Assembly: GCA_040285855.1 (NCBI GenBank)
Contig: JAUFOQ010000003.1
Coordinates: forward strand, 496,001 to 560,000
Reading direction: 5' to 3'
Origin: Eukaryota sp. GEM-RC1
Lineage: Eukaryota
Length of the DNA stretch: 64,000 bases
Both the position numbers and the translations under genes were made by a program. The notes under the pieces were generated by a model, which was not told where the DNA came from, searched no databases, and saw only the letters and a list, made by a program, of their open reading frames with translations. Position 1 is the first letter of the stretch. Each line of letters starts with the position of its first letter. Shown in pieces: positions 14,111 through 54,034 of this stretch.

Positions 14111-14695
14111 TTAATCTTCATTTGAACTAGAAACAGTTTCATAAGAAGAATCTGACAGCACATCATCTTCGTAACAAGATAGTTTGGGCGTAGGACAATC
14201 CCTCGTAGAGGTATAGTGATTCAAAGAGTTTGAGGATATGGATAATAACGTAGCTAGTGTTGAGCGATTAGCTTCAAGGTTATCAACTAGTTGTGCATAC
14301 GGCACAGATTCATCAGAAGTCACAATGGCATCAGGGGGAAGCTCGTTTACTGATATTGTTGGTTCTGAAGGGTTAGGTTCCTCTAATTGAGAAACTTCAA
14401 TGACACGTCTTCCTTCGATATCTTTCCCATAAACCGATGGGAGACTTTTAAATGCTTTGGCTTCCTTCTTGAAATTGTTTTCGAGATTTCGTTGCCCAAA
14501 ACCCCCATAAACAGGAAGAAAGGCTATCAATGTGTTGGAAAAGGGGTAAGAAGCGGAAGGAGGTAATGAACCAGATGGAGTTCTCAATACAAATGAACAT
14601 GGTAAGACGTTTGAAAGATAAGTGTAAATACAAGATAAAGTAGTGTTGGAAGGGAACAAATACTGCGTCTGGCCAACGTGGACGCTAAACATCAA
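14111..14695 (-). CDS. SDE2-like protein (ubiquitin-like N-terminus)
   Basis: UBL-like N-terminus ending LPVYGG-FG, then GKDIEGRRVIEV, resembling SDE2 GGKGGFG...RDLSGRRL. Confidence 0.55.
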   Translation of the reverse strand: MMFSVHVGQTQYLFPSNTTLSCIYTYLSNVLPCSFVLRTPSGSLPPSASYPFSNTLIAFLPVYGGFGQRNLENNFKKEAKAFKSLPSVYGKDIEGRRVIEVSQLEEPNPSEPTISVNELPPDAIVTSDESVPYAQLVDNLEANRSTLATLLSISSNSLNHYTSTRDCPTPKLSCYEDDVLSDSSYETVSSSNED

Positions 14696-15577
14696 TAACA
14701 GAAAAGTATTTTGGTTGGGGGAAAAAGTTGTCTACTAGTAGTGTTTTGCTTTCAGTGTGAATAAAATCCACATCCACATCCACATTTTCATCATCCAAAC
14801 TCATATCCACAACGAAGCCACACTCTGGTACTTCTCGTTCTTTTAGAGCTCTGTGACTCCCCAAACCGAATGCTAGTGACATTTGCTGACGACGTATAGC
14901 CGATACAAATGTTAAATGCCAATATCTCCTCGTAGACATTGTTACTCCTTCGTCTTTGATTCTCTTTCTTGTATAATAAACAACTAGTGTCTCTTCTGCG
15001 TATCTTCGTTGACAATTATTTCACTGACGACATCAAGACATCACAATTCCAGCCAAACATACATACGCGTCATCTTTATTGTTCTTTAAATGCTCTGCTT
15101 TGCACTTCTCGCCATTTCCTACCTTTTTTGGGAACTCCACAAATTCTCCATGTTGGAAACTTCTAAGATTGGCCTGCAAGTTTCTGAACCCAATGCCACT
15201 TTCTTTTGATGACCTCGACACCCTGAAAAGTTTACAAGAACTTCAATCACTTAAAGCACATGCTTTTGAAGACACAACTGTTCGATGTTGTGTAGCTTAT
15301 CAATTTTACGCACAGCTCAAGAAGAACTCAGCAGTTTCTACTGTGTTTCTCAGTCCACTATCTCACGGTGGCTTCGTCAAATCTGGACTAGTTTAAGAAG
15401 TTTTTGTGAGATTCTATTAGTATTCAATGGAGTTTATAAATTTAGTTGTACTCAACACTATAAGTTTTAAATATTATGACTGTTTGGATCATTATCTGTA
15501 TTGGACAGATTACGTCCAATACCTTCAGATAATACTGTCGGAGCAGGATCTGCCAATCTGTTAAAAAGTCCTATATG

Positions 15578-15877
15578 ACAACATTTGTAACTACAACATT
15601 TGGTGATACAACATTTGTAACTACAACATTTGGTGATACAACATTTGTAACTACAACATTTGGTGATACAACATTTGTAACTACAACATTTGTAACTACA
15701 ACATTTGGTGATACAACATTTGTAACTACAACATTTGTAACTACAACATTTGGTGATACAACATTTGTAAGTACAACATTTGTAACTACAACATTTGGTG
15801 ATACAACATTTGGTGATACAACATTTGTAACTACAACATTTGGTGATACAACATTTGGTGATACAACATTTGTAATG
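15578..15877. repeat. Tandem array of 20 x 15-bp units in two variants
   Basis: Units ACAACATTTGTAACT and ACAACATTTGGTGAT in irregular order, with no spacers. Confidence 0.95.
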
Positions 15878-15966
15878 AAAGTGTCGTTCGTATGTGTAAT
15901 GAATTGTTGACATTGATATTTTTTTTAAACACAACCAATAAAATATACAATCACAGTTTATCATAC

Positions 15967-18414
15967 TTAACTAACACTACTATATCTCCCCATCACACTC
16001 GCAAACATCACAGCCAACGAAAACGACTCCTTATATCCAATCCCACAACAATACTGACACATCACTTCACGAAATTCCTCCAATATTCCTAAACACTGTT
16101 CATCACACATCACTTCATCATTTAAATCTAATATCGACACAACAAAAGTGTTGGTCAACGACAACACATTAAAGTACTTGTCCCTATCATTCAAATGAAA
16201 ACTCAAAATTTTCGCAATCAATACATTTAAATCTTTTAACAACTGAAGTTTCAATTTCATATTTGGAAGACAATCTGATGTTGAATCATTTTGGTTCCTG
16301 TGTAGTGGTACAATATCGTGTACAATTGTTAAAATTTTTGTTTCTGTCTGCATGGCAATACTACGAGTATTGTTCAAGTTGTTTTCAAAATCTGTCTGAA
16401 GACCAAGTGAATTTGTTATTCTGTTGATAGATGCAGTGTCCTCATGATCTGTAACTTTTTTTGATAATTTCAAACTAGGTAAATTCAAATTTGGTTTGAG
16501 AGTATTTCGAGACAATAGATTTGGTCTCAATTTAGGCAAAGTAGTGACTGTTGTTTTTTTCAGTTTTGGCACAGGTTTGTTAAAAATTAAATCAGAATTG
16601 ATGGCACTTACACTTTGATTATTGAGACACTCATCGTCATCATTCACAACAAAATCATTCATACTAGACGACGCATCGTCATCATCATCAGTTTCATCAT
16701 CTCCACTATCACTTCCAGAGACAACAACTTCACTATCGAATAATTCTAAAACTGAATCAGAAGTGGTATTCAAATTTTGAATTTTTGGAACATCTTCCAT
16801 CAAATCTTCCTCAATTTCTTCATTGACTGGATCAAGAACATCAACAGTTTCCATACTTTCACCAACAATAGAAATAATATTGGACGAAAATTCATCAAAA
16901 GTTTTCAACACAGAAGGCCAATTTCTAACAATTCTTTCATCTTCTAATGGTAAAGGATAAAGAGGTTTAGTAACCGGTCGACAGGGGTGAAAAGTGGAAT
17001 AATACCACTGATAAAGGTCAATTCTTGGTTTGGGAAATCTAGAAGAAATATCTAAAATTTTAATTGAGTTCCAGTTCTTCACCCTACTCAATGTAACGTA
17101 CAATTGGGCATATTCCCAAAAATTTAATGATACTTCAATTCCTTCAATTGTTAGTCCCTGAGATCTATGGACTGTTATTGCCCAACAAGGACGAAGAGGA
17201 TATTGCAATCGGGATGCTATAATTACAGGCTTTTTCTTCTCATTCAACACCTCAATTTCAAATTTAGTCGGAATAATTTTGATTGGTTCTTCGTCCCTCC
17301 CGAATCTTACATTAATGAAATGTGAAGTTTCCGAAAAATCAATAATTTTGCCTTTTGACCCATTTACTAGGCCCAGATCTGGTTTGTTTTGGGTAAAAAT
17401 TACCAAACCCCCGACGACACAGTGAAATTTTTGTTCGGCAAAATCGTTTAGCCTACTTGATAATTTTTTTAAATTTAAACCAACAGCCTTTTCCATTTGT
17501 TCCTCATTAGGCTTACCAAATGCCCAACTTTTAACAATTTCTGATTTAATTAAGGTTTCATTGAACTTATCGAGGGAATGAAATTCAACATTTTCATTCC
17601 CTTGTTCACATAATAATTCAAATTGCTTTAAATTTTCGTCTGCGACATCCTTGTTTCTAGCAAATAATTTGGTTGGACTTTCAATATTTTTGGCTAATGA
17701 CTTATGTTTCAATAAAATATGTTTCATATAGTCATCAAAAAGACCAAGACGTAGTTCATTCAAGAAATTATAAAAATTGACATCATTTTGTTGTCGGATA
17801 CTTCCAGATAATTCAATAAAATTTAAATTCAAGTCCTTCCAAGACTGTGATGAAAACGTAAAGTCTGAAAGTTGAAGGACATTACGTGTGTTTGAGTCGG
17901 ACTTTACAATTGGTGCAAGTTGCAAAAAATCTCCAAAAATTACAACTTGAAGTCCACCAAATGGTAACTCAGATTTCAGTAAATCTTTAAATATATCAGA
18001 TGCTCTGTTGAATAATTCAGCAGTCAACATTGAAATTTCATCAATTACCAGCATTGAATTTCTGGCAGTAATAGATCTTAAAATAGATTTAACACTCGAA
18101 GGCATAGAGCGAATGACATCAGATATTGGTTTTTCATTACGGATAAAATTATAACCAAAGAGAGAGTGTAGTGTTTGACCACCAAAGACAGTTGAAGCAA
18201 CACCAGTAGTAGCAGTAAAAAAGACATGGCCATTGGGTCTCATTAGCTTGGAACCCGCATTAGACCACCACTGTTTAAGACAGTACAGTAGGTAAGACTT
18301 GCCCGATCCGGCACCACCAGTAATGAAGAAATTTCGACGCTTAGAAGGTCTAGCATGAGTTATCGCTTGGAAGACCTGAGCCTGTTCGTTTGTAAGTGTG
18401 TTGATAATGGACAT
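15967..18414 (-). CDS. PIF1-family (SF1B) DNA helicase with acidic C-terminal extension
   Basis: GGAGSGKS, TATTGVAS...GQTLHS, IDEISML, FGGLQVVIFGDFLQLAP, RQ, NGSKG, RLQYPLRPCWAITVHRSQGLT, QLYVTLSRV. Intact and intronless, 815 aa. Confidence 0.95.
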   Translation of the reverse strand: MSIINTLTNEQAQVFQAITHARPSKRRNFFITGGAGSGKSYLLYCLKQWWSNAGSKLMRPNGHVFFTATTGVASTVFGGQTLHSLFGYNFIRNEKPISDVIRSMPSSVKSILRSITARNSMLVIDEISMLTAELFNRASDIFKDLLKSELPFGGLQVVIFGDFLQLAPIVKSDSNTRNVLQLSDFTFSSQSWKDLNLNFIELSGSIRQQNDVNFYNFLNELRLGLFDDYMKHILLKHKSLAKNIESPTKLFARNKDVADENLKQFELLCEQGNENVEFHSLDKFNETLIKSEIVKSWAFGKPNEEQMEKAVGLNLKKLSSRLNDFAEQKFHCVVGGLVIFTQNKPDLGLVNGSKGKIIDFSETSHFINVRFGRDEEPIKIIPTKFEIEVLNEKKKPVIIASRLQYPLRPCWAITVHRSQGLTIEGIEVSLNFWEYAQLYVTLSRVKNWNSIKILDISSRFPKPRIDLYQWYYSTFHPCRPVTKPLYPLPLEDERIVRNWPSVLKTFDEFSSNIISIVGESMETVDVLDPVNEEIEEDLMEDVPKIQNLNTTSDSVLELFDSEVVVSGSDSGDDETDDDDDASSSMNDFVVNDDDECLNNQSVSAINSDLIFNKPVPKLKKTTVTTLPKLRPNLLSRNTLKPNLNLPSLKLSKKVTDHEDTASINRITNSLGLQTDFENNLNNTRSIAMQTETKILTIVHDIVPLHRNQNDSTSDCLPNMKLKLQLLKDLNVLIAKILSFHLNDRDKYFNVLSLTNTFVVSILDLNDEVMCDEQCLGILEEFREVMCQYCCGIGYKESFSLAVMFASVMGRYSSVS

Positions 18415-18867
18415 TGAGTGTGTGAAGTGGTGATGTTTAAGATGCAGATTGTGCAGGGAAACTTTCCTTTTACTATAATTTATATAACTATCTCCACTTT
18501 ATGGAAAATGCTGGTCGTACATAATTCTTAGAAGCTTGTTCTATCATGATGAGCTTTCTATCGTCTCATATGTCAAATTATATGTCTATGTAAAACGTGA
18601 TGTTGGTGCTGAGATTGAGCTTGATGACAAGCAATGTTTCTTGTCCTTGGACTACTTTCGAGCACTTCAATACATATCCGAGTCTTTTAAAGTCACCCCT
18701 TGATCTTACAAATCAAACATGAGATCTCTCTCCTAGCACTCGTTGATGCCATTCTATCTGAAGACAAGGTAACTTCTGCTTCTGTTTCACTAAATCCAAG
18801 GTAATTCCTCATCCTCCCTCCACTGCTGATGTTCCTCGTAGAAGTGGAACACCCCGATTTGTGTTCT

Positions 18868-19671
18868 CTATATGTCGAATGTAATCTCCTTATTGCTATA
18901 TGTTATAAAATAAAACTGTTCTTTATACTTAAGCAATGAATCAATGAAACTCACAAACTCCTTGTCACAATCTGCATCACATTCATAAATCTCATTCACA
19001 TCAAACAAGTTGAACAACGAAGACACCCTTTTAACAACAACGGACATTTCAATAAACTCCTCATCTTGACTGTTCTCACACATAAGAATTATATCTGTCA
19101 ATGGTTCAGAACATCCTGTAAACTCTTGGAATACTTCAGTAAGTAACATTTCCCTACACTCATCACCATTCAAAGACAATAGCAAAACTGTCAATACTTT
19201 AACTAGACACTGCCGATCACTAATACTCCAAAGAAATTCGGAAATATCATTGAGAAACAATATTCTTGCACACTTTGTGATCAACAACGTGTTTTACATT
19301 GCTTGTAAAGAATTTGCAAGTACAAATAACAGGTCAGAAAAACAATTTAGCATTCCCTCAATATCTACACTACTACAACAACAACAAACAATTTTGAATA
19401 CCACGTTCCACAATGGAATCGACGGCATTGTCTTACATTTCGCTAGTATATGTGAGCAGATGGAAAGTAAAGGAGATAAAGAAGTTAAGTCATCTTCAGG
19501 ATTTGGATGAAAGCTCATACGATGTATGTGAGACAAAAGTGATGTCAATTTGTCAAGAGAGTTAAGTTCTCCTATGGCCATGCATTTGATACACCCACAT
19601 GCTTGTATTTGTTGAATGAGATATGTTTCAAAGAATTTTGCCAAACAATCTTGTAAGATATTGTTGGTCAT
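18868..19671 (-). CDS. Hypothetical helical protein (two adjoining ORFs, probably one frameshifted gene)
   Basis: Abutting 125-aa and 139-aa ORFs on the same strand; no recognisable motif. Confidence 0.35.
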
Positions 19672-19770
19672 TGAATTGATAGTGAAGGAAAATATTTTTC
19701 CGGCAAAAATCCAATGTCAGTTTTATGTCTTTATTCGCTCTCATTTCAGTCTTCTGATGATGCTACGTCT

Positions 19771-20349
19771 ATGTCTGTCAATTACAACAAGAAACTACGC
19801 TCTAATGCGTTCCGAAGAAAGAATATGAACAAGCACCAGGATGTCTATAACGTCTTTAGTTATACATCCAAAAAGGTTGATGGTAAAAATGTCCAGCTCG
19901 GTCCCAATGGGGACTATATCCTAATTTCACGATCTCGTGATAATTCAACTGATGGACTTTCTATAAGTACCAACAATGATGAATTCCTCTCAGACTTGGT
20001 ACAATCTAAGGAAGACTTTTTTGAGAATATTGTTCACTTTATTAATTCTAGAACTCAATATTTAGCTTCCCAAGGCGCAAAAGTACCAGACATTCCTTCA
20101 CGTTTTAAGAAAGTGTATGGTAAAAATCCCGACGAAAACGAAGATCTTTCTGAGTTCTATTCAATTGCTCCTAATGTTATTCATGAAAGAACTCATATTG
20201 TTAAGAAAAGAATAAGTACCTTAAAGAAGCTAATGTTGTTAGCAAAGAAGCCACAACTCCAGAACCTCTCACAAAGTCCTCTCGTAACTCTCCCATCGAA
20301 TCCGCTCCTTCTACTCCTACTGAAAACAATGAAATTCAATCCTCCCTAG
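19771..20349 (+). CDS. Hypothetical basic protein (may continue past a frameshift)
   Basis: About 190-aa open frame from MSVNYNKK, divergent from the previous ORF; no family recognised. Confidence 0.35.
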   Translation: MSVNYNKKLRSNAFRRKNMNKHQDVYNVFSYTSKKVDGKNVQLGPNGDYILISRSRDNSTDGLSISTNNDEFLSDLVQSKEDFFENIVHFINSRTQYLASQGAKVPDIPSRFKKVYGKNPDENEDLSEFYSIAPNVIHERTHIVKKRISTLKKLMLLAKKPQLQNLSQSPLVTLPSNPLLLLLLKTMKFNPP

Positions 20350-20728
20350 GATCACTTGTTTCCAAGACTTTGGGACAGCAGTGTGGAAAGCAACAGCCTA
20401 TCTCAGGCAGCGATAAGAGAAAGAAGTTAGAGATAAAGAAGTTAAATGTAGGACCTGTTTTGCAGAAACAACTGGCAAGTAGAACAAAATAAAGAAGATG
20501 TTGTTTATTGAATGAGATAAGTGTGCATGGTCTAGTATAGGACTCGAAGATGTGAAGTGAAGTCTAGGTTCACTTTTCTTTCATACATGAATCCACTGAT
20601 CTAATTCTAGATAACTGAACCTCAACCTAAGAAGATTGTTGACGTTGACAGCGTTGTCAAGACTGGTCATGAGGCAGTGATTACTCTTTTAGCAAACTCT
20701 AAGCATTCACTTGACGAGAAGGAACTTG

Positions 20729-20989
20729 AACTCATCTTTAGTGCAGTTGCTTCCGCCCTTCGTGAAACCACCACCCCAGTAATTGAAAGAGCTATTCGAA
20801 TTGCTGGTGATACTGCTCGTGATACTGCTAGCCTCCTCATACACCATATGCGATTTAAAACTCACCTTTAGTGCAGTTGCTTCCGCCCTTCGTGAAACCA
20901 CCACCCCAGTAATTGAAAGAGCTATTCGAATTGCTGGTGATACTGCTCGTGATACTGCTAGCCTCCTCATACACCATATGCGATTTAAA
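20729..20989. repeat. 130-bp tandem duplication
   Basis: 20729-20858 is repeated at 20859-20989, almost identically. Confidence 0.9.
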
Positions 20990-21865
20990 TTTGTTTTTAT
21001 AGATCATTAATGTAGTTTTCTTTGTTTAGATATCAATAAAGCATCCCGTTCTTCTTTTGTTTCCAAGTCTCTCCCTTGTTAACACGAAATCAACATATAC
21101 GTTCTAGTTCAATGCATTGTCTATCTTGTGATACACAAGAGCATTGAAAATATCATTGTTGATGTATTAAGTAATGAATGATGTCAAGTAAGTAAGTACA
21201 GAAATGTTGTATTTGAAGTGTATGAGATATCCGAAGACAGAAAAGATGTCTGCTATCTGTAGACAAACAGACATGACTCCAAAAATGAATACTGCAATTT
21301 CACTTTTCTTCTCTCTTGACATGCGTATGATCCTCAATCTTTCTAACTATAGACTGCGCAATATGAAAAGAAATTTTTCACTATGGTAAGTGCTTACCTC
21401 AAAGCTGAATTAGTGAGGTGTGACGCCGTTCCCCAGGTTGTCATCCAACATTTTTACCCAGTTGTCTCCCGCTTGGACAAATGGCAATGAAGGTGTTCGG
21501 TTGGCAATCTATGGTTCATCCGTCGTTACACTCGCTACTTACTACCTAAGTCATAAGCGTGTGATTCCCTTCACACAAATTACCTACTATGACCATGGCC
21601 GTGTTCTACTCTTGAAGATTGACCTCTGAGAAGTTTAAGACAATGTCTTGTGACTTGTATTGACCACACTGTATAACTTTCTTCGTTCCATCCGTTTCAT
21701 TTCTCTCTGCTCTTCTTCCACTGAATTGCTTGTGACACAAGCAATAGACGAAAAAGTTGTTGTGTTAGCAAACTAAATGTAGCAGCATCTAAACAACTCA
21801 AAGTCACTTCTATCGTCTTCTCCATATGAAACAAACAGAATGATGACGATATTGCTCACTAACCC

Positions 21866-24800
21866 ATGGACACAATGTCTTCCTCTTGTCGTCTGATTTC
21901 GCTTTCCCCTGCTGGGTCAGTTGATGATGACGATGAGATGAAGTCTTGTAACATGGGGTGTTGTGTTCTCTCTACAGAAGGAAATACATCGTGGATACGT
22001 GATCTTTCCGTTGATGGTGATATTGAACTCAATCCGGGACCTCCTCGTTCTGTACGAGCTTCCTCTACCCCACCAACTATGATCGATGCAAAGATAATCA
22101 GAGCTTCTTCCTCCTTATCACATGATGATCAGCCACTACGAATACGAAAAGAGCCACTACGAAAACACATTACCAGATCTAAGAGAAAAAAGATGAAGTA
22201 CCACAACATCAGGAGGCACCGTTGTTGTCGTGTTTGGCATGATACATATTCACATCCATTTGTTAGGTCATGTAAACTCGACGGTTTGGTTGTTTGTTCA
22301 TGTTTACAACATCTAATGATTGATAATGATTTTGAACATTTGACAGATCCTGCTCCAGATGTCATCACTGAGCCAGATAATAGTTCACGACGCTCTTTTC
22401 TCGATAGAATTCAGAAGGAATTGTGCTCACCCGGTTGTTGGCCTTCACTGTGGAAAATTGAGAATTTTATTGTTGCCAAACATTATGAAAGTATTGTCGC
22501 TGAATGCCAACGTAGTGAAAATCATCCTATTCTCTGTTATGACGATGAAGTTTTGGACGCACTTCATATTTATTGGCAGGATCTCCAGGATCCTGAAAAA
22601 GAATGTCGCTTCCTATTCAACCTATTGGATTTCAAATTACCATGCATCAAAATGATGATAAATGTCCGTCTTTTAAGCAACCTTTTTGTCATTTTATTGC
22701 ACCATGCCTTTATTGTTTAATTCCGGGGCATCAATATGAAAACTGTCCCTTTGCAGTTGCCAATTATAGTGATGTTACATTTAAGTTTAAATCATTATAC
22801 GAAAACATTAACCCAGACGTTTTGTTAAGACCTGAAGTAACGCTTGATATCTTATTGACAATGCTTCATATGCAATTAGCACAGTCAGAAAACCAGGTCC
22901 TTAAAGTGTATGATGTTGATACAAATCAATTTACACTTGAGATGTACAGAGTAAACCAAGAAGTTATTCAAGATTTTGCTAAATCGACAGAAGCTGTTCC
23001 AAAATTTCAAACATTGGTCTTTGATATTGCGCAAATTCTTCTGTTAATTGAAGAGGACGAAGACACTGAAAAGATTGATACTGAAAAGAATGATACTGAA
23101 ACAGCTGAATCCGATCAATTGTATACTCAAAATGCTCTTGATGATATGTGGAATCAATTTAAGGCTATCAGAGATTCATCATGGACTTCTCAACTACTGT
23201 CAAGATTTTTTAATTTGTGTTCTGTAATTGAATATTATATGTATGTGGATACAGCTGATGTCATCCGTATTGAGAAGGAAACAGTCATTGACACTGAAAA
23301 GATGAAGAAACAGGTAACATCATTGAAACTGAAAAGAAGTTGAAAATAGAAAAGTTATCCGACATAGGTATACCTTATTGGAGAATTTTTTTGGAACAAG
23401 GTTTGAAAGTGCAAGTATGTTGCTGTTCCAATTGTCTTTTGTGCCTATCATCATTATACTGCACAAACTTCTCCATGTCTAATGTTTTTTTGTCTATCGG
23501 CTATTAATTATTTAGTCTCAATGACATGGTATCTGCCAAATCACCAAGACTACTGTGAGTTATTCGACATATACACAGAATGGAGACATCCCCGTCTATT
23601 ATTGGAAGAACATGAAACGGTGGAGATTGTACTGCCACAAGAGAAAATAGTTGGCTCTATTGAATATCCCATCAATACCTCAAAATTAGCTAATCTAAAA
23701 TCTTTTGTCCGACTGAGCGAATTTCTAAGTTCGGTTGTTGATATTTTGACCAAAAATGATGAATGGAATACTGCCGTTGACGCTGTCCAGGTTAACTTTG
23801 AATTGGTGTTGTCATGTCTGCGGTTAATTCACAGTGCACGGAATTGCCGTATTGCCTTTGTCAATGAAGGATTACACACTTTTTTCGATCTGATTGAGAT
23901 GATTCGTCTAAATTATATTGATGATAATTGTAATATTCCTTTCATCGTTTCTGGTGAAACAGGTTCGGGTAAATCAGTTTTAACTGGAGTTGTTGTTGTT
24001 ATGGTTACTCTGGAACCAATCATTGTCTGCCAACCACGAATTTTACCAGCAACAAAACTATCAAATTTTATCAACGATTTGTGTGATACTACTTTTCCCT
24101 TGTCTGGATACCGTACAGGCAATAAGAACACAAATATCCCTCTGAATTCACAAAGGTTTATTGAAGTTCAAACTGCTGCTTATACTTCTAAATTTATAAC
24201 GAACAACAAAAATGTTGAAAAATTTATGACAATTATGGTTGATGAAGTCCATGAACGAAAATGTGATATTGACATTTTGTTAGCTCAGCTGAGGATTATT
24301 TCTCGAACTCCTCGATCTTCTTTAGGGCATTTGTTCAGCTACTATGGACACTCCAAATCCTTGTTTCAGATATTTAACTCAGGATTGTAGGAACCAGTCA
24401 TTTTATTTGAATTGTGAAAACAATTATACCATCCATGCTACTGGCAGAACCAACCCACTTGTTGTTGTTGACTATGACTGCATTAGTGTCAATACTTTTT
24501 TCCCAGACACCGTTGGTAGTCAACTTGTCCAAATCAGACTTTTCGAAGATCGTGAGGTTCTACGCCATTTTAAGTACCACGTTTTTAAAATATATCAATA
24601 TTTTACTAGCAGTGTCTGTCGTTACTACTCTCATTTCGTCAAAAATTTGAACCCAATTTCACACAAGAGTATAAACTTCAAAGAATTGGCTCAAGTTTGT
24701 CTCTGTTATTACTCGCTTGCACAGTCAATATTCAAGCGGTTTTCTCACTGTGAAGGATTTACGTTGCTTGTGTTTCTTCCTGGTAGTCCAGAAATTACTA

Positions 24801-27800: not shown

Positions 27801-28959
27801 TGGTTGGTACATCCAATTCTTTCATTTGTATATCGAATTGTATATTGTCGGTTATTTCAGTTACAGAAACTGACAAAAAAGACTTAGAATGGGATTCTCT
27901 TTCAATATTGTTAGATTTAGATGATTTAACAATTGAACGCGGAGAACAGTTTAAAAAATTAAGACGTTATGACAATTTGATATTAATTGCTGGTACATTA
28001 ACCATCCGAAAGCTAGATTTGTATGAAAAGCAGCGGCTTGATACAAAAGTAATGGATCTTTGTACATGTCATCACGATGACAGAATTATAGATGCAGTCT
28101 ATGTACAACGTTATGACACAATAATGTACATAACTGAATTAGGGTTTTGTATTGGTTTCGGTTTGAAACTGCCACAGAAACAGATTCAATTTATAATTGA
28201 TTGTTCATGTGGTGAGTTAACAGGTCAAATGTTAAAAATCGATTTTTGCAATGATTTAAATTCTTTCATTGTTCTGAAAAGGATGGGACACTGTTAATGC
28301 TTTCAGCATTATCTGTGATTGGTATTTCTGGTGTACAATTTGCAGTTCATGATGTTCGTTATTGTGATTCAAAAAATATTTACGAACAACGATTTCTTGA
28401 ACTACATGCTTTACGTATGCAGTCGACACAACAAGTTCAACAAGTTGAGATTCCTGTTGTTGAAGAAAGTGCTCATCCCATTGACATTGATACAACGAAA
28501 AGACTTCAGTTTCTTCAATCTAGATGGAGTGTTGATGAAAAAATCAACAAGGTGAAGCATTTGTTGACTATATTTGAGTTACAAAAAGTTGTAATTACAA
28601 CTGATTCAGCTGAAAAAGTAAGGAAACTTTCAAGGCTTGTTTCTGAGGTTGCTTTTAGAGTTGTGACACTAGAGGGTGGAAAACCACGAAAGATTACATC
28701 AAGTCTGAAAACATTCGATGAACATACTGGTCCTGTTTTATTGATCAGTACTACTCAATTAGCGGTTAACCATTCTGTTCAGGCTGATCTTTGTATAATC
28801 TTTGATCTGCCAAATGATGCCAGACATGTTCACAAATTGTATGAACATAATCAAAAAATCGTTGTCTTTTACGATTCTATCAGTGATAAGGACAAAAAGC
28901 AAAATTTAGAAAAACACTTCTTTAGACCCTCAGGATTGCAAGCACTTCATTTTATATAG
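21866..28959 (+). CDS. Putative polyprotein 1 (frameshift-interrupted): 2A peptide, CCHC knuckle, DEAH-box helicase, unknown region, beta-rich region, helicase-C-like domain
   Basis: Seven overlapping or closely spaced + ORFs. Motifs: WIRDLSVDGDIELNPGP; CLYCLIPGHQYENC; GETGSGKS; CQPR; VDEVHER; LVFLPG; LATNIAESSLTIDGVKFVIDCG; QRSGRAGR; C-terminal LLISTT...ADLCIIFDLP. Joining them into one frame is inference. Confidence 0.7.
21992..22042 (+). other. 2A/StopGo ribosomal-skipping motif #1
   Basis: WIRDLSVDGDIELNPGP is a perfect D-[VI]-E-x-N-P-G-P motif with picorna-like-virus upstream context. Confidence 0.85.
23900..25420 (+). CDS. DEAH/RHA-family SF2 helicase core (frameshift near 24330)
   Basis: Motifs I (GETGSGKS), Ia (QPR), II (DEVH), IV (VFLPG), V (ATNIAESSLTI) and VI (QRSGRAGR), followed by PEIL...L and an HA2-like LT.LG. 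Confidence 0.9.
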
Positions 28960-29411
28960 TCTTTCAATAATTCATTGATGTTTTTGTATTATGTAGAACA
29001 ATATACTTTATTACAATTTTTCTTTATTTATCAATCAACGAAGAAGTTGATTGATTGGTTTTATCTGGTCTAAATTTATAATTTATACCATGATTTTTCA
29101 CATAAACTATGCTACCACATCTACACTGAATATGTAACAAATTGGTCTGGTTTTATATGTCACATTTTCTGACATACTAAATCTGTAACAAATTTCTGTC
29201 AGATTTCAGATGGATGAAATTCACGGATTGTTCTGTATGTAATAACTATGTAACAAAACATTGATATTTAGACTACGTCTGACACATTTCATTGAACATT
29301 GTAATATTGTACAAATATTGTTTATTTGATGTGTTATTCTTATATGTTATACAAAATTATAAATACATCTATATTGTACTATTTATTCTCTATCACTGTC
29401 AATTCATTTTT

Positions 29412-30971
29412 TTAAAGTCTTTTTGATTCCAAAAGCACTTGCAGTGGTTTTAATTCTTCGTTTTCCTGTTTTTTCCCTAAAACTTCATTTTCGTCTTTTG
29501 TCTTTAACGATTTGATTTCAAATTTTGTTGTTGAACCATCAATTACATTTTGTTCTGTCACCAAATCAGGTTGTACACTCTGAAGTAAATCATACATAAC
29601 AAGACATAGATTTTTTCTTGATCTGTCAGTGTATAATTTTGTCTGATTTTGTTCCTGACGTGCATCAACCATTAATCCTTGTAAAATTAAAGTAACATTC
29701 AAACAGACAATCCATCCACAGATAAGAGACGATGTGGACTGTGCAAAAGGTATATAGTAGTCCACCTTATACTGTGGTAATCTTGCAAACAGATTTGTTT
29801 CCCCACATCCATAAACAGTTCTAAAAGGATTAACGATTAATTCAGTGGTTAATGAGTAATCCAAAGAATCATATATATTGAATAATAATACATTTGCTTC
29901 ATTTAGAAACAATTCAATAAGAATCCAATGACCAGATCCTGCATCACCAGGAACATGTTCTTTCACCAAACATAATGGGGCAAGAATTCTTTTTCCTGAT
30001 TTTAGTGTATCGACAATAGCCTTACCAGAATGTAAGGCATAGCATATTGGATCACCTACCAACTGTTGAGTTTCTTGAGATTGCAGGAACTTATACCTAT
30101 TTGATTTAAATTTTTGGAATGCAAGCATCACAATGAAATCAAGTTCAGAACTCAACAAGAGTTGTGTTTTACCTTCCCTATCATCCTTTGTCAACATTTT
30201 CTCAATATCACTAAATCCAAATTTAAATTTTGAATTTATGTAAAACTGATCACTGATTAAATCTGCAGAAAGAATCAACGGGTTACGTTGTTTTTTGCGT
30301 TTCATAGGTTTAGATAAATTAGCATTATCACTGACTGGAACAGAAACTATTTCAGATGGTTCAGAGAAAATAGAATGAATATGATTGATTCCAAAGTTAT
30401 CAATACGACGTTTTGGTGAAGGAATTAAGACTTGTGATGGAGTATTGTCAATGCGAGTATTGTCATAATCATGTAAAAGAGTAGGAGACTGAGGCCGAGG
30501 AGGAGGAGAACGAGCAATTGTAACTCGTTTAACGTCTTTGAGTAGATCCTTAAGATGATTTAGAGTTGAAGTTGTTGAAGGAAGTGGAAGAGATATGTCA
30601 CGCTTCTCATAAGAACCATCAAAAGGAAAGAGATGAACAGTTTCTAGATCAACATCTAGCACAATGGCAACGGCTGATTTGTAGTTGAGGCAAAAATCCA
30701 TGGTACCCTTTTTAAGATCATCTGGTAAGTCAGATGTTGACACTTCCGTTATGTGAATGGATTTAGTTCTCCATGAATTGTATGTTCCATAAGGAAGAAG
30801 AACAAGTGACAAGTTAACTGCATACTTATCAGCAAGCTTTACAACAAGTTTCATATATGTTTTGATGGTACGGGAACGACTTTCTTGTTCAGAAGTATTT
30901 CTGAGTTTGAAGATTGAGTAGGACATGGGAAATTCTGGTATAGACTTTATTACAGATTTCGTTCCAGACAA
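29412..30971 (-). CDS. Protein with a C-terminal Ulp1/C48-family cysteine protease domain
   Basis: ILAPLC...GSGHWILI...IYDSL...AQSTSSLICGW gives H-D-Q-C catalytic residues in Ulp1 order. Intact frame; likely ATG at MSYSIF. Confidence 0.75.
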   Translation of the reverse strand: MSGTKSVIKSIPEFPMSYSIFKLRNTSEQESRSRTIKTYMKLVVKLADKYAVNLSLVLLPYGTYNSWRTKSIHITEVSTSDLPDDLKKGTMDFCLNYKSAVAIVLDVDLETVHLFPFDGSYEKRDISLPLPSTTSTLNHLKDLLKDVKRVTIARSPPPRPQSPTLLHDYDNTRIDNTPSQVLIPSPKRRIDNFGINHIHSIFSEPSEIVSVPVSDNANLSKPMKRKKQRNPLILSADLISDQFYINSKFKFGFSDIEKMLTKDDREGKTQLLLSSELDFIVMLAFQKFKSNRYKFLQSQETQQLVGDPICYALHSGKAIVDTLKSGKRILAPLCLVKEHVPGDAGSGHWILIELFLNEANVLLFNIYDSLDYSLTTELIVNPFRTVYGCGETNLFARLPQYKVDYYIPFAQSTSSLICGWIVCLNVTLILQGLMVDARQEQNQTKLYTDRSRKNLCLVMYDLLQSVQPDLVTEQNVIDGSTTKFEIKSLKTKDENEVLGKKQENEELKPLQVLLESKRL

Positions 30972-31266
30972 GTGAATTTACATTCATTACTTCATTACTT
31001 ATTGGAATTAATTCATTTTCTTCTCGTCTACGACTATACATGGCTTTATAGCAAATGAATTTAGAAGAGAACTAAGTCAATGAGTTTGGTTATACGATTG
31101 ACAGTCTTAAAGACTTCTTAAGTAATCACTAATGGTAACGGATGATGGTATAACATAAGAGTTGTTTTGATGTTTTGACACTCTACTGACTACAAGTGAT
31201 AGTAGAATTGTACTGTAGTCTAGACTACAGGGATGACTGAAACATTTCATTTTCCTCTATCCACAA

Positions 31267-34200
31267 ATGTTGGTTGTTTTACATTCTAACAGACACTCTG
31301 TTCCGTACAAGGCTCCTCTTTTGACCCAATATGAGGCGGAATCCCCTGCTTGGATTCTATCTCCGTTGAGTCGATATATGGATAGCTTTTTCTCCTCTCC
31401 CGTTGATGTCATGCTGCCACCTTGTTGTTTGTATTTGACCCAATATGAGGCGGAATCCCCTGCTTGGATTCTATCTCCGTTGAGTCGATATATGGATAGC
31501 TTTTTCTCCTCTCCCGTTGATGTCATGCTGCCACCTTGTTGTTTGTATTTGACCCAATATGAGGCGGAATCCCCTGCTTGGATTCTATCTCCGTTGAGTC
31601 GATATATGGATAGCTTTTTCTGTGTTGTGAAAACACTTCCATCTCTGCTGTTGTATGTACTCTACTTCTATTCATGTATCGTCCATTCCCATCCTCCGTT
31701 CCCAAAAGACCTCACCGCGGACGGTGACATTGAGTCCAATCCCGGACCGTTGTCCAAAGACTCCCTAGAGTATTTGAATCCTGGCCAATGGATAGATGAC
31801 GATGCTATCTTTCAATATTGTGCGTACCTTTTTAACTCTGCTGGACTAGCATTGGATCTATACTGTATCCTCTCTAGTGTGATGAATGGATTAATTACTG
31901 ATCTTTCACCTGAACATAAACAAACTGTAGATCGACAAATTCGTATTGCTAAAACCACCGGTACTCGATTCCTCATTGCTCCTATCAATGACGGTATGAC
32001 TGCCCTGTCTGCGTCACGCTCATTTTCAGGATCTCATTGGGGTGTTATTCTATTGGACTGTGTACAAAATGTTGCAACAGTTATTGATCCAATACTAAAT
32101 TCTACCTATTTGAACCCCATTGTTGATAAATTCAGAGAAAAAATGCCAAGTTTCACGATACGTTATGCAAACGTCCTGAAATCTCAGACTCCAAGTGATT
32201 GTGGAATTTATGTCATTGCATATGTTCAAAAATACTTACAAATTCTTACAACACATGAAAGTTTGTCTGATCTATCGATTGATTTTTTTTGCAGAGAAGA
32301 TGTGTGAAGTTAACAATGAACTTAATGCTGCAGATCTCCGTAAACAGATTCAGAAATTGTTTACTTATGTCGACGATCAATTGTTCATCAAATATTCCAA
32401 AATACTTGTGGAATCAAAAGGTTTAATCTTTTATGACCATGTAATTAGGCCAACTGATTTATATCCGTTATTATATGGTGACCAACCCTATAATAAATAT
32501 CCATTTTCAGAATTTTTGACACAGAAATTCTTCCAATGTGGTCAAAACAACCAACAAATGCTACTTGTTCCTGTCAATAGTGCAATGTGTGATCTTACTG
32601 CTGATGGTCGTCATTGGGGTTTAATTGTTCTGATCATTTCATCTCCTACAAGTCATATTTTATTCATTGATCCGACCTACGTTGAGGATGATTATGCCAG
32701 AGAATTTCCTGCTAACCAAACGCCAGTTGCACCATCTTCCTCCAATTTATTTACAATTGTGTCAAAAATTTATTCAGTGTTGTCAATGTGTGAAACCAGA
32801 AATATAGAATTTATTCCATCAAATATCAAACATACTCTAACTGACTCTGGTTTTTGTGTTCTCGAATACATTGATCTTTTAATGAATTTAGATCAATCTG
32901 TGGTCATAAGGTGGACTGATGTTAAAGAACTGCTGGGTAATACCACTATTGCTGTTCACGAGTCTCGAAGTAAAATTTTGGAACATTTTGAAACTTTTAG
33001 TCCTGTTGATTTGTCGCATGTGCCAAAAATGCCAGCCGTCCCTCCAAAACGTTTGTCCAGTTCAAGTGTTTCAACCGGTGCCACTCCTTAAACTAAAGTT
33101 TCTGCCATTAACTTATTGCCACCGACTGTATCAAAACCTGTTCCTGCGTCTCTCACAGGTTTGCGTCTAGCTAGCACTAAAGCATCCACTGGTTTAAGCA
33201 CCAAAAAAAGTAAACCCAAACTTGCATCACCAAGAGGTTCACCTCTAATTAAACAAAAGGAATCCAGAACAACCAACTCCCTTGTATCAACTGGTATCAC
33301 TCCTCAAACTAACATTTCTGTGACCACCGTATCTGAACCCGTTCCTTCGTCTCCAACTCCTAAACCATCAATTACAGAACAAGAACCCAATAAATCACAA
33401 AAGTTCTGTCTAATTGAGATAAAAAGTGTGATCTCAGATCCTGAACGCTTGAATCTTAAAGTCGTTCGAGTTAAACAGGAGCCAGAAGTAGACGAAGAGA
33501 TTGAATCAACTTCAGAAGGTATTCCACAAATTCAGGATACTACGTTTGAAATTCAGCGTGATCCAGATTTAGATCCAATTGTGTCGATCTCTCTTCAGTT
33601 TACCCATGATAAATTTGCAAATGAAACTCACCTATTCACCCGTAATGTTTCAGAAATTTCACTTTCTAATTGTGTAGTTCACACGTTTACAACTGAAAAA
33701 TCAATGTTAACAAATTTCATTACATTTTTAAATCTTAACAAGCCCAGTTTGTTAATAAGTTATGATTGGCATTTAGATACTTTTCCGTTTTTAGTATCAC
33801 GATTTAAAAAATTAGAAATTGACATTGATTATACAATTGATGATTACATTTCTTCTCTTCCATCTTGGTTCCACAGATGGTGCAAACCAACGGAAATTGG
33901 CCCTTTTTATTCCCTTGACTTGAATTCAGTATTGAAGAAGTTGTATGTCTTTAGAAGAGGTCGGTTTTTGGAAAACGTGACAACAATTATGATGGACATG
34001 AATAATCATTCAAGAACATTTGAAAGTTTTGACAAGGAAAATATCTTCCTTAAGAGAATATTTCATTCTTTAGACAATCCTCTAGTGTCAGATGAAGAAA
34101 TTAAGGTTAAAACTGATGAACGTCAAAACAAAGCGCCATCTGTGAAACTAAAACCCAAGGCTGTTATGGAGATTCGATTGTTAGCAGAATTAACAAAACT

Positions 34201-37200
34201 CAATGAACTTTGGGAATCTAAAACTTCAAGAGACACTTCGAGAGCCACTTTGTTATTGAACTCAATCAATAAGTTGTTTCTGATACAATACCTTTTATTT
34301 GATCTTCTCGATGAAAAGAAGCAAAAATTAAGAGAACGATCACCAATGAAGGTTGTGAAACAACGATTAGATAATGTTGTATCAAAGACTAAAGCCAATT
34401 GGATGGAGTCTTGTGCTAAGAGAGCTCATCAGGTCAGAGTTCGTGGTACACATATGTTGAAACATTTTTTCGTTACTAAGTTTCACAACTCTCTAATTTT
34501 CGACAAGGTCAAAGAGATACAACCTCCCACTGTTAAAGAAGAAATTGAAACAGACACTGAAGTTTCAGACACTGAACAAACAGAAATTTTAAGTGAAGAG
34601 TTTGTGCCTCAACAATTAGAAGAAGAAACTGAATTGCCTGTGACTTCAGACCCTGATTTTGGTTTGGATCGTACAATTGAATCCGAAATTTCAGAAGAAG
34701 ACAGCCAAATTTTAGAAGAAGACAGTATTGAAAATGAAACTGGTGAACCTGAACTTGACCTTTTACTAAAATTAAAACTACCAAATTTGAATTACCAGAC
34801 TGGGGAGCTTACTTTAAGAAGGGTCCAATGGGACAACTGTTGGCCATGATGTGGATTCCAAATCACCAATTTTTCAACAGCACTGATCATGTTAAAACTG
34901 TGGAAAACTCTTTAAACAACATCATTTCTAATGCAAAAACAACAACTACAAAGAAGGAGTTCGCCCAACACTTCCTATCAAACTACATCCCTCTGTTAGA
35001 AACTGCTGGTGAAATGGTTGGTAAAGATAGGATCGTGTTTCCAAGTGGATTATATTTGGCTAATCCTCTCGGTTACGTTGCAACCGAAATTATTACTAAT
35101 TATAAGAACAACATGAGCCAACACTTTCATGAGTATGTTTTTCAAGTTTTTAATTTGGTTACTCAAAAGAAAGAGAGAATGGAAGCTATCACCGACAAAA
35201 CTGAACGACAAGAACTCTGTCAAAGGATTAATGAAGTTAGAGAATTGATCATTAATGGTGAAATTTCTAAAATTAATTTTGATGACAAGCAAGTTTTTAC
35301 CAATCCCGAATCTCACTTGAGTATACTCTTCTTCAATTATTTGTTTAATTATTTTGAAGGAAAGATGGAGAAAACGATCTACTATGCTGAAAAGAGTGAT
35401 CCGTTATACTTTTTAAGTCATGCACTGTATTTGAACCGTCTCATTGAAGACTATTGTCCTGGTGTAAGAGCAAACAATCCTTTCCCATTGTCTAAATCTT
35501 TAATTCCAAATCATATCAGGTTCGATACGCAATGGTTTCACGAAATATTTTGTAGGGATCTTCCCTATAACTATAATGAAGTACGGAAACTTATTTGGAA
35601 TTCAGTATTAAAACCTCAGGCTATTCCAGAGTCATTATCCTATGACTTTAAATACACTTCAATTTCGTCAGACGGTTTAAGTTGTAGTTTGTTAATGATT
35701 AGGAAAGATTTACTTGATGAAAATGGAAATGCCCGTGAAAATGTTACAGCAGTTAATCTTGCTTCAAATGAACGATATATTGATTCCTTAAGTGAAGATG
35801 AAATTGAAGAACTGAATTTAAAATCTCAGAGAATTGTTGCTGTTGATCCCAACCAACATGATCTCATGTATTGTGCCAGTTTAAAAACTGATGAGGAAGA
35901 GGCGTGTGAGAAATTTGAAGTTGATGAAACAAAACATTTGATAAAAAATGGAATGACTAATGCTTGTGTTACAGAAATTGATCTTACTTCCAATGAACAA
36001 TATATTGATTCCTCAGTTGAGAAGGATGATTCCTCAAGTGAGAAGGAAATTGAGCCCAAGTCAGTTACCCAAGTTAGAAAAAGAAAGATTGCTCCATTGT
36101 CTTCTAAGAAAAGGGGAAGTTTGAAAAAAATGAAAAAACAATTAAATGATTGGAAGCAAGACACTAACCCACAACCTGTAAAGTGGAAAAATCGTGACAA
36201 ATGGAAGGTGTTCCGATACACTGCTGGGGAGAGAAAGGCAGATATTAACAAATCTAGATGGAAACCAAGAAAAAATCAGCCATCACAGTTCCAAAAAAAT
36301 TGACAAAGAAACAAAAAAGAAAAAAAGCTAAAAAGGAACGAAAGAAAAAAAGAAATTTCAAAAAACTTGAAAGGAAACGTGACAACAGAGGAATTGTCAA
36401 ATTGACCGAAAGCGAACGATTACAGAGGTACTCAACTGAGTTTGAGAAGAGTGTGTGGAATGGTCAAAAGTACTGGATTCCTACAGTTCTGATACTCCAA
36501 GAAGAAAATCATGTAAATTGGAAGAATTTTCAAGGTACATGGTTAACAATGAAGTTTTCTGTGCATTAATGAGATCAACCACAACTGGAAAAGCAACTGC
36601 TGAAGGATTACCTAAAAAGAAAGGACCATCTAAGAATCTATTTAAGAAAGCACTATCTAAGAAACTACCTAAGAAAGGACCAACTCAAAAAATACCTGCT
36701 ACAACAGAAGGCCTTTATGAAGAGAAATTTTTTAGACGTAGACGCCTTACCCAATATTCAAGAAAAGAACGAAGTGAACAAAACTTGGTCCATAGATTAG
36801 CTCTCCAATATGGTGATCCAGATGAAGTCGTTGTTGGTTTTGGGGATTGGAATGACACTCAATTCCGAAGAAGAAGGGGTAAGGCAAGTACAGTAAAAGG
36901 CGCTACTCTTCGAAACTTACTAAGAAAATTTGGATTTAAAGTTTTCTTAGTTGATGAATTCTATGACAAGCAAATGTTGCTCTGCTTGTGCTGCTGAAAA
37001 CCAGGAAGGTATCTGTTCCAATCCTGACTTTGTCAAGGTCATTGATCCTCTGTGGAAGAAGAAGTTACAGAAGGAGGAGAAGAAATTGAAAAAAGAAATT
37101 ATGGAACACAATCAATTAGACAATGTTGTGAAACGTAATTTTGAAGATGAATGGACCAAACAGTTGCCATTCATGAAAGAAAGATTAAAGAGCAAAAAAG

Positions 37201-37595
37201 TCTCACCATGGGGCTTAGTTCAGTGTGCTAAATGTCATGTCCTCTGGAATAGAGACTTCAACTCTGCTATTAACATTTATAACATTGTAAATGGAATTAT
37301 CCAAGGTCAAGGTAGACCTGCTGTCCTCGAGAGACCAAAATCTCAAACAATAACTATCGAGGATGGTGGGATTACAGATCAGGTTCCCAAGAAGAAGAGT
37401 GTGAGTAAGTGTCAGTTTTGTCATATGGAAGGCCATACAACGGCAAAGTGTCCTCAAAGACCTGTGCCTCCTAAAAGTCCTCGTACATGTACGATATGTA
37501 GACAACCAGGACATGATAGAAGAAATTGCCCAAGTAAGGCCCAGAAAGATGTACCCAAAGACTCACAAGTAGAGAATGAAGAACCGGAATCCTGA
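31267..37595 (+). CDS. Putative polyprotein 2 (frameshift-interrupted): 2A, SENP8/Ulp1 protease x2, Ser/Thr/Pro linker, degenerate PolB exonuclease-like domain, Fanzor1, 2 CCHC knuckles
   Basis: Seven overlapping or adjacent + ORFs that can be joined by small indels near 32290, 33085, 34820, 36265, 36455 and 36962. Motifs are listed in the sub-features. The exo-like region and the Fanzor N-terminus share one open frame (33116-34849). Confidence 0.7.
31321..31620 (+). repeat. 114-bp in-frame tandem repeat, about 2.6 copies
   Basis: Unit starts at 31321, 31435 and 31549 and encodes LTQYEAESPAWILSPLSRYMDSFF(SSPVDVMLPPCCLY). Confidence 0.92.
31699..31749 (+). other. 2A/StopGo ribosomal-skipping motif #2
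   Basis: FPKDLTADGDIESNPGP, immediately upstream of the protease domain. Confidence 0.88.
31750..32990 (+). CDS. Tandem SENP8/NEDP1-like (Ulp1 clan) protease domains; first looks active, second has Cys->Ser
   Basis: Domain 1: LNPGQWIDDDAI, FLIAPIND, SGSHW, VIDP, SQTPSDCGIYV. Domain 2: LLVPVNS, GRHW, FIDP, HTLTDSGFCV. Confidence 0.8.
34346..37595 (+). CDS. Fanzor1 (eukaryotic TnpB/OMEGA RNA-guided endonuclease) module
   Basis: Fanzor1-type blocks: KVVKQRLDNVV...RAHQVRVRGTHMLKHF; YVATEIITNYKNNMSQHF; PFPLSKSLIPNHIRFDT; SISSDGLSCSLL. RuvC-I VAVDPN (D 35845); FRYT; YEEKFFRRRRLTQY...VVGFGDW; RuvC-II FLVDEF-(x)TSKCCSAC (E 36956); GLVQCAKC; RuvC-III WNRDFNSAINI (D 37254). Confidence 0.88.
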
Positions 37596-37800
37596 ATCTT
37601 ATAAGTTAGCTCGTCCTAAAAGGCTTGCAAATGAGTGGCACAATGTGTCAAACTGTGGTGATAGTGTATTATGCATTTGAAATGAAATCCACAGTCTAGG
37701 TGGGAAAAGAAAAACAATTTGAATTGGGACCAAGAATTTTGTTATGACAAAATCTACTCATAGTACTAAAACGGACTTGAGATCATCATGATCTCATCGA
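37596..37800 (+). ncRNA. Candidate Fanzor omegaRNA scaffold / element right-end region
   Basis: Directly 3' of the Fanzor stop. Four inverted repeats: 37636-37650, 37652-37658/37689-37695, 37736-37753 and 37778-37796. Position fits known OMEGA systems; boundaries are a guess. Confidence 0.4.

Positions 37801-53012: not shown

Positions 53013-54034
<1,022 letters not shown>

Follow-up and report, generated by a model that had tools for sequence, protein, structure and literature searches.

The question raised by this locus is what kind of DNA brings together two helicases, several Ulp1-clan proteases, two 2A motifs and a Fanzor protein, and by what means such a block could have spread. The locus lies in a 64,000-nucleotide stretch of contig JAUFOQ010000003.1 (positions 496,001 to 560,000; assembly GCA_040285855.1) of Eukaryota sp. 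GEM-RC1, a Skoliomonas metamonad; this whole stretch is called the window, and positions are counted from its first letter. A first-pass annotation, made from the letters alone, had marked about 22 kb of the window as a candidate giant mobile element, and the PIF1, the DEAH helicase, the three Ulp1-clan domains, the two 2A motifs and the Fanzor (here a Fanzor1) that it listed were all found again. The block very probably belongs to a multi-copy selfish element family and not to the host genes. It is further read as a nearly complete copy, with four hairpin-separated modules, from a young DNA element family that is multi-copy and has two old subfamilies; that this family spreads replicatively, through an initiator not recognizable here, is held with a confidence slightly short of even.

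Copies and subfamilies

The protein records of the family lie on 7–10 contigs of one assembly, which is the dispersal expected of a transposable element, and the case that would have spoken for a single-copy block of host genes therefore fails. The search with the Fanzor region returned six clusters, one being the protein of the window itself and the other five coming from GEM-RC1. Together they comprise 33 records, which fall into a near type A (14) and a far type B (19), on at least 10 contigs among the 30 listed. PIF1 was represented by 26 records, of which 19 are PIF1-A (at least 7 contigs among the 15 listed) and 7 are PIF1-B, and Ulp1-A by 16 records (at least 9 contigs among the 15 listed). 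The pieces of polyprotein 1 gave clusters of 1–2 members each, and the sole relative returned by a direct search was of B type, with 9 members. The A copies are on average 92–96% identical to one another, and the identity between A and B was 52–60% for Fanzor, 56–64% for the PIF1 core, 45–48% for a polyprotein-1 domain and 38–39% for open reading frame (ORF) B. Near and far versions, 38–64% identical, were thus observed for four genes across three modules, and this parallel split into two subfamilies suggests that the parts of the element co-evolved. Among four copies of Ulp1-A the folded domains are 97–98% identical and the linker 85–89%, a difference which points to selection on this protein during spread.

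Several records link the modules. PIF1 012986 and Ulp1-A 012988 are two locus tags apart, as are PIF1 010083 and Fanzor 010085 (two pairs within 3 tags against 0.26 expected, p 0.026), the spacing of PIF1 003530 and Fanzor 003509 is about that of a full-length copy, and gene model 002224 is an Ulp1-A N-terminus ending in LLLCLN, which is the out-of-frame PIF1 tail of six PIF1 copies. The linked PIF1/Ulp1-A and PIF1/Fanzor records and 002224 look like internal-deletion derivatives, and two short end-linking derivatives are present. From the locus tags, most of the sampled copies seem to be partial and not full length, so that the block appears more modular than a rigid 22-kb unit. Guessed protein look-ups gave no match in 15 of 20 cases, which reflects gene-model choices and not absence.

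Gene content and architecture

The block contains about 7,000 codons in total, arranged as four gene modules: PIF1 with ORF-A and ORF-B, polyprotein 1, Ulp1-A, and polyprotein 2 (Table 1). PIF1 and ORF-A run leftward from ORF-B and the 2A-DEAH polyprotein, and Ulp1-A runs leftward from the 2A-Ulp1-Ulp1-exonuclease-Fanzor polyprotein; the two divergent modules drawn by the first-pass annotation were recovered at the same positions. GC content at third codon positions (GC3) was 0.24–0.32 for the block ORFs (n = 11) versus 0.32–0.41 for host ORFs (n = 9).

Polyprotein 2 exhibits, in this order, a repeat leader, a 2A motif, an Ulp1 domain, an Ulp1 domain with a Cys-to-Ser change, a Pol-B exonuclease-like domain, Fanzor1 and two CCHC knuckles. 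The Fanzor1 region is homologous to SpuFz1 (E 1.3e-9) and GtFz1 (E 5.6e-4) and matches PF07282 (E 0.003). All three RuvC acidic residues are present (D 35845, E 36956 and D 37254), in the motifs VAVDPN, FGDW...VDEF/TSKCC, which spans a frameshift and has its Glu ahead of a C4 zinc finger, and NRDFNS; this is the rearranged RuvC pattern of Fanzors (PMC10530073). By these features the protein is a true Fanzor1, and a nuclease role is predicted for it. The exonuclease-like domain (33404–33820), directly ahead of Fanzor, matches PF03104 with E 4.5e-7, just over the cut-off; its best PDB match, a weak one, is Pol delta (E 0.026), and its catalytic motifs look degenerate by eye. The Ulp1 domain that follows the 2A motif matches PF02902 above its cut-off (E 1.5e-4) and has its catalytic residues, while the other two Ulp1-clan domains were recognized by H-D-Q-C motifs in the translation and by the U2/U3 similarity (E 4e-7), the third having Ser in place of the catalytic Cys. 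The N-terminal domain of Ulp1-A shows a weak C48 resemblance (ESM Atlas score 0.85), taken as a lead only. The leader contains a near-perfect 114-bp tandem repeat of 2.6 units (31320–31621) within the coding region, which also occurs in copy P0067 and is thus not private to the present locus.

Polyprotein 1 begins with a leader and a 2A motif, followed by a Cys/His-rich region with a CCHC-type knuckle, a DEAH/RHA helicase, an uncharacterized domain kept in subfamily B, a beta-rich region and a second RecA-like domain. The helicase has a Helicase_C match of E 1.5e-11, Prp16 as its best PDB match (E 2e-19) and motifs I–VI that are legible across one frameshift; the second RecA-like (helicase-C) domain (28255–28956) matches with E 8e-4, below the cut-off. 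This domain, the exonuclease-like domain and the CCHC knuckles had been missed by the first-pass annotation. ESM Atlas gave no usable match for 21866–22717, region 22597–23900 was searched against Pfam and PHROGs, and the alignment of 25998–27089 gave no match at E ≤ 5 in a PDB sequence search and an unusable AlphaFold model (pLDDT 32). The stretch 26620–27000 is strongly conserved between subfamilies A and B, with 21 identical residues IESTFGCINRLRILVYLTEQG, and a K(I/V)G motif upstream of it is reminiscent of GIY-YIG/T5orf172 nucleases.

The motif D(V/I)ExNPGP occurs twice in the block, at 22019 (polyprotein 1) and 31726 (polyprotein 2), and in none of 200 codon shuffles. The two sequences, KDLTADGDIESNPGP and WIRDLSVDGDIELNPGP, fit the upstream classes DLTxDG and WV(R/K)DLTx[acid]G; upstream classes, including W(V/I)(R/K)DL, are described for 2A motifs in RNA viruses (PMC12846837). 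A 2A motif is retained in copy P0067. The two 2A/StopGo motifs match the class definition, and ribosome skipping is predicted at 22039/22040 and 31746/31747. In three 2A surveys (PMC12338488, 10.64898/2026.09.24.754024 and PMC12846837) the motifs are assigned to RNA viruses and retroelements, and neither DNA viruses nor DNA transposons turned up in term searches of the accessible text.

PIF1 scores 143 bits to yeast-type Pif1 versus 76 bits to the helicase of the Helraiser Helitron, and no N-terminal Rep domain is fused to it, either here or in the 14 listed copies. In a quick tree of 70 rows, which included 40 of 80 fetched viral PIF1 loci and no Helitron sequence, it is sister to the PIF1 of Skoliomonas TZLM1-RC (SH-aLRT 98) and apart from the 40 viral sequences. 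The missing upstream domain, the bit scores and the tree position argue that PIF1 is cellular-type, not Helitron-type and not a broken RepHel. ORF-A has no family match in the Pfam and PHROGs scans. For ORF-B an intron of GT-AG type is predicted at 20448–20610, implied by the gene model of relative P0100 that crosses it, so the earlier remark that the block has no evident introns needs some qualification; a near-perfect 130-bp tandem duplication (two units, 20729–20989) lies within its coding region. Only three credible relatives of ORF-B (91, 82 and 38% identical) were found among 1.84 billion representatives. A fourth match, P0102 (a 1,609-amino-acid repeat protein, E 7e-5), and a Logan representative of 57 amino acids, P0062, were discarded as spurious. 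The AlphaFold model of the ORF-B N-domain was unusable (pLDDT 43), and fold searches with it reached at best E 0.24, or Z 3.6 with a root-mean-square deviation of 4.1 over 83 residues. Between ORF-B and polyprotein 1, 850 bp (21010–21860) contain no long ORF and gave no Pfam match in any frame; a gene in decay or a regulatory stretch might account for them.

Table 1. Features of the block and its borders, in window positions (aa, amino acids).
Feature	Positions	Strand	Basis
SDE2-like flanking host gene, outside the element	14111..14692	-	motif reading
Left border hairpin, 16-bp stem, 4-nt bulge, z -3.9	15491..15533		folding
15-bp tandem array, 20 units, two unit variants	15578..15876		repeat search
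PIF1 helicase, stand-alone, 815 aa, intact, cellular-type	15967..18414	-	PF05970 E 3e-32
ORF-A, ~265 codons, in-frame TAA 19294-19296	18868..19671	-	ORF reading
ORF-B, one frameshift near 20205	19714..21010	+	ORF reading
Perfect 10-bp hairpin, boundary of modules 1 and 2	21725..21745		hairpin scan
Polyprotein 1, ~2,360 codons, 7 frameshifts	21866..28959	+	ORFs, relatives
Perfect 10-bp hairpin and second, imperfect hairpin, between convergent genes, z -4.4	29030..29094
Ulp1-A, 504 aa, intact, C-terminal C48-clan protease with H-D-Q-C	29412..30926	-	motif reading
Perfect 18-bp palindrome, boundary of modules 3 and 4	31213..31230		hairpin scan
Polyprotein 2, ~2,110 codons, 5 frameshifts, TAA at 33089	31267..37595	+	ORFs, relatives
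Right border hairpin, 9-bp stem, beside the 3' region of the HEAT gene	37778..37796		hairpin scan
HEAT-repeat flanking host gene, outside the element	37922..40264	-	Pfam

Hairpins, tandem array and flanking genes

The tandem array and hairpin at the left border and the hairpin at the right border, noted at first sight, were confirmed. With a perfect stem of at least 9 and a loop of at most 7 as criteria, five perfect hairpins were found, all five in the 2.7 kb of intergenic DNA (0.17 expected; 0 of 300 simulations), and they split the block into units whose copy numbers differ. No common sequence was found among the five. The left hairpin has a perfect 9-bp core (15498–15522) with the loop AGATTAC, and is a candidate for the left end of the element or its origin; as a lead only, the loop end ATTAC is reminiscent of rolling-circle nick sites. 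The right hairpin is likewise a candidate for the right end, and the 15-bp array possibly represents protein-binding iterons. Three copies of TGTAACAAA follow the hairpins between the convergent genes, at 29133–29257. Two further matches were taken as chance: an inverted one, 15540/22356 (E 1.3), and a weak one of the array to 29.2 kb (p 0.05).

Of the two flanking genes described earlier as host genes, the HEAT gene is supported by its Pfam match, whereas ORF 14111–14692, which we call SDE2-like from a motif, gave no match in the Pfam scan. To the right of the SDE2-like gene, ahead of the left hairpin, lies a short plus-strand ORF (15028–15396) that may belong to either host or element, also with no Pfam match.

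Integrity of the reading frames

The long ORFs of the first-pass annotation proved to be fragments of two polyproteins split by 12 frameshifts and one TAA, at 33089; together with the frameshift in ORF-B and the TAA of ORF-A at 19294, these are the breaks of the present copy (positions approximate). Four of them are read in frame by relatives P0100, P0068, P0014 and P0007, and programmed frameshifting is not favoured because at least four breaks are read through in this way. Of 28 PIF1 and Ulp1-A models from other copies, 17 go out of frame at one of four A5/A7 runs, the background share of positions close to such runs being 11–17%. Nanopore R9.4 reads, corrected with Illumina data, were used for the assembly behind the GEM-RC1 records (PMC11316075). 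The clustering at A-runs and the read type indicate that many of the breaks are probably sequencing errors. Three changes lie outside homopolymers and may be true decay: both TAAs, and an insertion that falls between RuvC Glu and zinc finger.

Search for a mobilizing enzyme

Canonical mobilizing enzymes were searched for with Pfam (22 main pieces, plus another 138 that included relatives) and PHROGs (20 pieces), and no transposase, Rep or recombinase was matched, in agreement with the earlier statement that no transposase is visible; the sole PHROG match named transposase was the TnpB-like end of Fanzor. The same scans of block pieces and relatives gave no reverse transcriptase (RT), pPolB, packaging ATPase or capsid, capsids being often missed by hidden Markov models.

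No named family matches the present copy, as had been proposed. For Helitrons, no Rep (HUH-Y2) was found, and HUH-like strings followed by a hydrophobe are confined to frames other than the main ones; hairpins are present and no repeat is common to both borders. For DDE/D transposases, Pfam and PHROGs gave no match, the unassigned ORFs having low-confidence models only. For Polintons, no long terminal inverted repeats (TIRs) were found, and the exonuclease-like domain has no polymerase domain with it, and for non-LTR (long terminal repeat) elements no RT family was matched in any scanned frame. In pattern scans, which are insensitive, the Fanzor alignment had no relative among viral, metagenome or prokaryote collections, the 25998–27089 alignment none among metagenome or viral contigs, and Ulp1-A none among viral contigs; four scans of IMG/VR gave no relatives apart from generic PIF1.

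Mode of spread

No recognizable jumping enzyme was found in the block, which makes a spread by DNA copying likely. An initiator (a nickase or transposase) would reside in a module missing here, or be concealed in an unassigned ORF, and would act at the border hairpin and array, while the captured host-type PIF1 would power strand-displacement copying; starts and stops at the internal hairpins could then give the observed single-module and deleted copies. The 2A skips would free short leaders from both polyproteins, and Fanzor1 with a right-end guide RNA may cut element-free alleles, whose repair would restore the element. The Ulp1-clan proteases and the DEAH helicase may oppose SUMO/NEDD8- and RNA-based silencing. 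Restorative homing of this kind has been reviewed (PMC13565253), and the Fanzor1 elements CRe-1/2/3 are non-autonomous, truncation-prone and mobilized in trans (PMC3627910).

A number of observations weigh against this reading. The initiator was not seen in any examined sequence, and about one third of the coding sequence has no assignment, so that a cryptic initiator within the block is possible. No TIRs or end motif shared by the borders were found, the ends being approximate, and there is no convincing target duplication, the flank zones sharing just two 6-mers. The hairpin thresholds were set after the hairpins had been inspected, and intergenic hairpins may simply mark the ends of transcripts. 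Downstream of the Fanzor stop no structure was evident (37560–37830 versus shuffles, z +0.6), and an Rfam search for structured RNA gave no match. The PIF1 placement comes from a quick tree, which has a long branch and includes just two further sequences from named eukaryotes. Ulp1-A and Fanzor-A, although near neighbours here, form no pair within 25 tags (14 × 13 listed copies), which, if all copies were full length, would be unremarkable only if the family had some 100 copies or more. Over all modules, 4 cross-module pairs fall within 25 tags versus 2.0 by chance (p 0.14), and such sparse linkage is also compatible with independent elements. The clusters are leaky and expected partner fragments are absent from the lists, which makes copy number and linkage uncertain. 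Finally, the two in-frame TAAs and the non-homopolymer insertion in the RuvC region suggest that the present copy itself may be dead.

A mode of spread with no dedicated initiator was also considered, in which Fanzor1 makes an RNA-guided double-strand break, the element's own PIF1 drives break-induced or template-switching synthesis of the whole or a part, and the proteases and exonuclease-like domain bias repair. We regard this as rather unlikely. It would accord with the transposase-free Pfam and PHROGs scans, with the closeness of PIF1 to cellular Pif1, with the frequency of partial or deleted copies and the lack of TIRs, and with Pif1 and Pol delta forming the core of break-induced replication (PMC8047440, PMC13237216), Pol delta being also the nearest, if weak, PDB match of the exonuclease-like domain. 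Homing, however, requires flanking homology, and dispersed insertion among unrelated host genes is not explained by it alone; moreover, the unassigned third of the coding sequence could conceal an initiator, and the other copies are known from protein records. Somewhat less improbable but still doubtful is a broader proposal, in which giant eukaryotic mobile DNA of a new class does without a dedicated transposase: the Fanzor1 break and the captured Pif1 would copy the element or its hairpin-bounded segments via host break-induced replication, and polyproteins processed at their 2A motifs would provide SUMO/NEDD8 proteases and an RNA helicase to counter silencing. The hairpins also allow the four modules to be viewed as separately copied and inserted segments of one co-evolving system, sometimes joined, which we hold to be improbable: the hairpins sit at module borders, module counts are unequal (PIF1-A 19, Ulp1-A 16, Fanzor-A 14, polyprotein-1 pieces 1–2), a direct search gave no A-type relative of polyprotein 1, copies are mostly non-adjacent and the A/B split is common to three of four modules (Ulp1-B was not searched for), yet the five hairpins share no sequence, the linked derivatives are joined inside genes (P0060) and leaky clusters could imitate unlinked modules.

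Two other origins had been raised by the first-pass annotation. That the block consists of unrelated elements side by side or nested, for instance joined near 29.0–29.4 kb, would agree with the sparse locus-tag linkage and with a hairpin followed by CTGG|T at 29065–29069, which resembles a Helitron 3' end (about 40% by chance, estimated). The idea is weakened by the A/B split running in parallel on both sides, by the uniform GC3 and by three records that place PIF1 next to Ulp1-A or Fanzor; each side, moreover, has one 2A motif and neither half has a detected transposase, and the chance of such a junction appears small. In the suggestion of a new large element or an endogenous virus, the mobile or selfish block stood and the virus did not. 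A DNA virus or its derivative (Polinton-like or a giant-virus fragment), with structural genes lost or never visible, is very unlikely, although the GC content is below that of the host and Ulp1-clan proteases occur also in large DNA viruses. PIF1 (80 viral loci fetched) and Fanzors (PMC3627910) are likewise found in such viruses, and the 2A motifs are of RNA-virus classes (PMC12846837). Against it, no capsid, packaging ATPase, pPolB or integrase was matched, Fanzor, the polyprotein-1 domain and Ulp1-A have no relatives in IMG/VR, none of the 80 viral PIF1 loci carries another block gene or a 2A motif, PIF1 groups with that of Skoliomonas, and ORF-B has a predicted intron. The replicatively spread, hairpin-separated element family thus remains our preferred reading. 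Should a transposase emerge in other copies, this would be the most cargo-rich Fanzor element found and possibly the source of a new transposase lineage; should none emerge, it becomes directly testable whether an RNA-guided eukaryotic nuclease can spread an element and not merely retain it, with a culturable host and a public assembly.

Other elements and genes in the window

Various other elements were observed in the window. An LTR retrotransposon with frameshifted ORFs occupies 1079–7501 (direct repeats 1079–1188 and 7392–7501, 99% identical), in which a Gag knuckle, protease, RT/RNase H, integrase and a chromodomain-like end were recognized by eye. Two inverted copies of a miniature inverted-repeat transposable element of about 870 bp (44390–45260 and 57082–57951) are about 98% identical and have perfect 22-bp TIRs, CAGGGCCTACGGAAAAATATTT. 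Fragments of restriction-like-endonuclease long interspersed elements with RT motifs, some of them frameshifted, were seen by eye at 7475–8612, 55711–57107, 59349–62501 and 62349–63325. Small elements at 47020–47888 and 12832–13459 are edged by repeated hairpins (TAGTTCAGTTCAGTTCAC..., 15-bp stems) and 27-bp inverted repeats, and are possibly non-autonomous transposons. The host genes read by eye in 51319–54031 and 10396–12227, namely arginine deiminase, class II fructose-bisphosphate aldolase, dCTP deaminase and a PP2A-type phosphatase, fit an anaerobic protist.

Comparison with known systems

Mutator, CACTA and Zisupton/KDZ elements resemble the block in being large and in carrying Ulp1-clan protease cargo; unlike them, the block has no detected DDE/KDZ transposase or TIRs, and it has three or four protease domains, two helicases and 2A motifs. 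Polintons and Polinton-like viruses are alike in size (15–25 kb), in a protease with a helicase and in many copies in a protist, whereas no pPolB polymerase domain, integrase, ATPase, capsid or TIRs were detected in the block. Helitrons and Helentrons share a Pif1-family helicase, hairpins and captured protease or nuclease domains (PMC11417382, PMC8788227). The 2A-bearing non-LTR retrotransposons and RNA viruses have an N-terminal 2A of the same upstream classes (PMC3708506, PMC12846837), but the block has no detected RT, endonuclease or RNA-dependent RNA polymerase and a divergent multi-gene layout. Fanzor1 OMEGA systems in Mariner, hAT, EnSpm, MuDR, Sola and Crypton elements (PMC10530073, PMC13565253, PMC10711439) are alike in a Fanzor1 with rearranged RuvC glutamate near the right end; in contrast to them, no DDE, tyrosine recombinase or TIRs were detected in the block, and its Fanzor is fused to an exonuclease-like domain, two Ulp1 domains and CCHC knuckles. 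The Fanzor1 Helitron2 elements CRe-1/2/3 are similar in having no cis transposase, terminal hairpins and many truncated or internally deleted copies (PMC3627910). They differ in being small and in sharing their ends with an autonomous Helitron2, whereas the block is 22 kb long, no asymmetric terminal repeats were found in it, and its 2A polyprotein has Fanzor as the final domain.

No described element that unites Fanzor1, a stand-alone cellular-type PIF1, a DEAH helicase, Ulp1-clan proteases and 2A was found in the literature searched, with subscription papers and Repbase mostly outside its scope, and the accessible text on the GEMRC genome, 48% of which is repeats, gives no account of the present family (PMC11316075). 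Compared with these systems the block, with no visible transposase, is apparently an undescribed multi-copy giant Fanzor1 element of unusual modular build.

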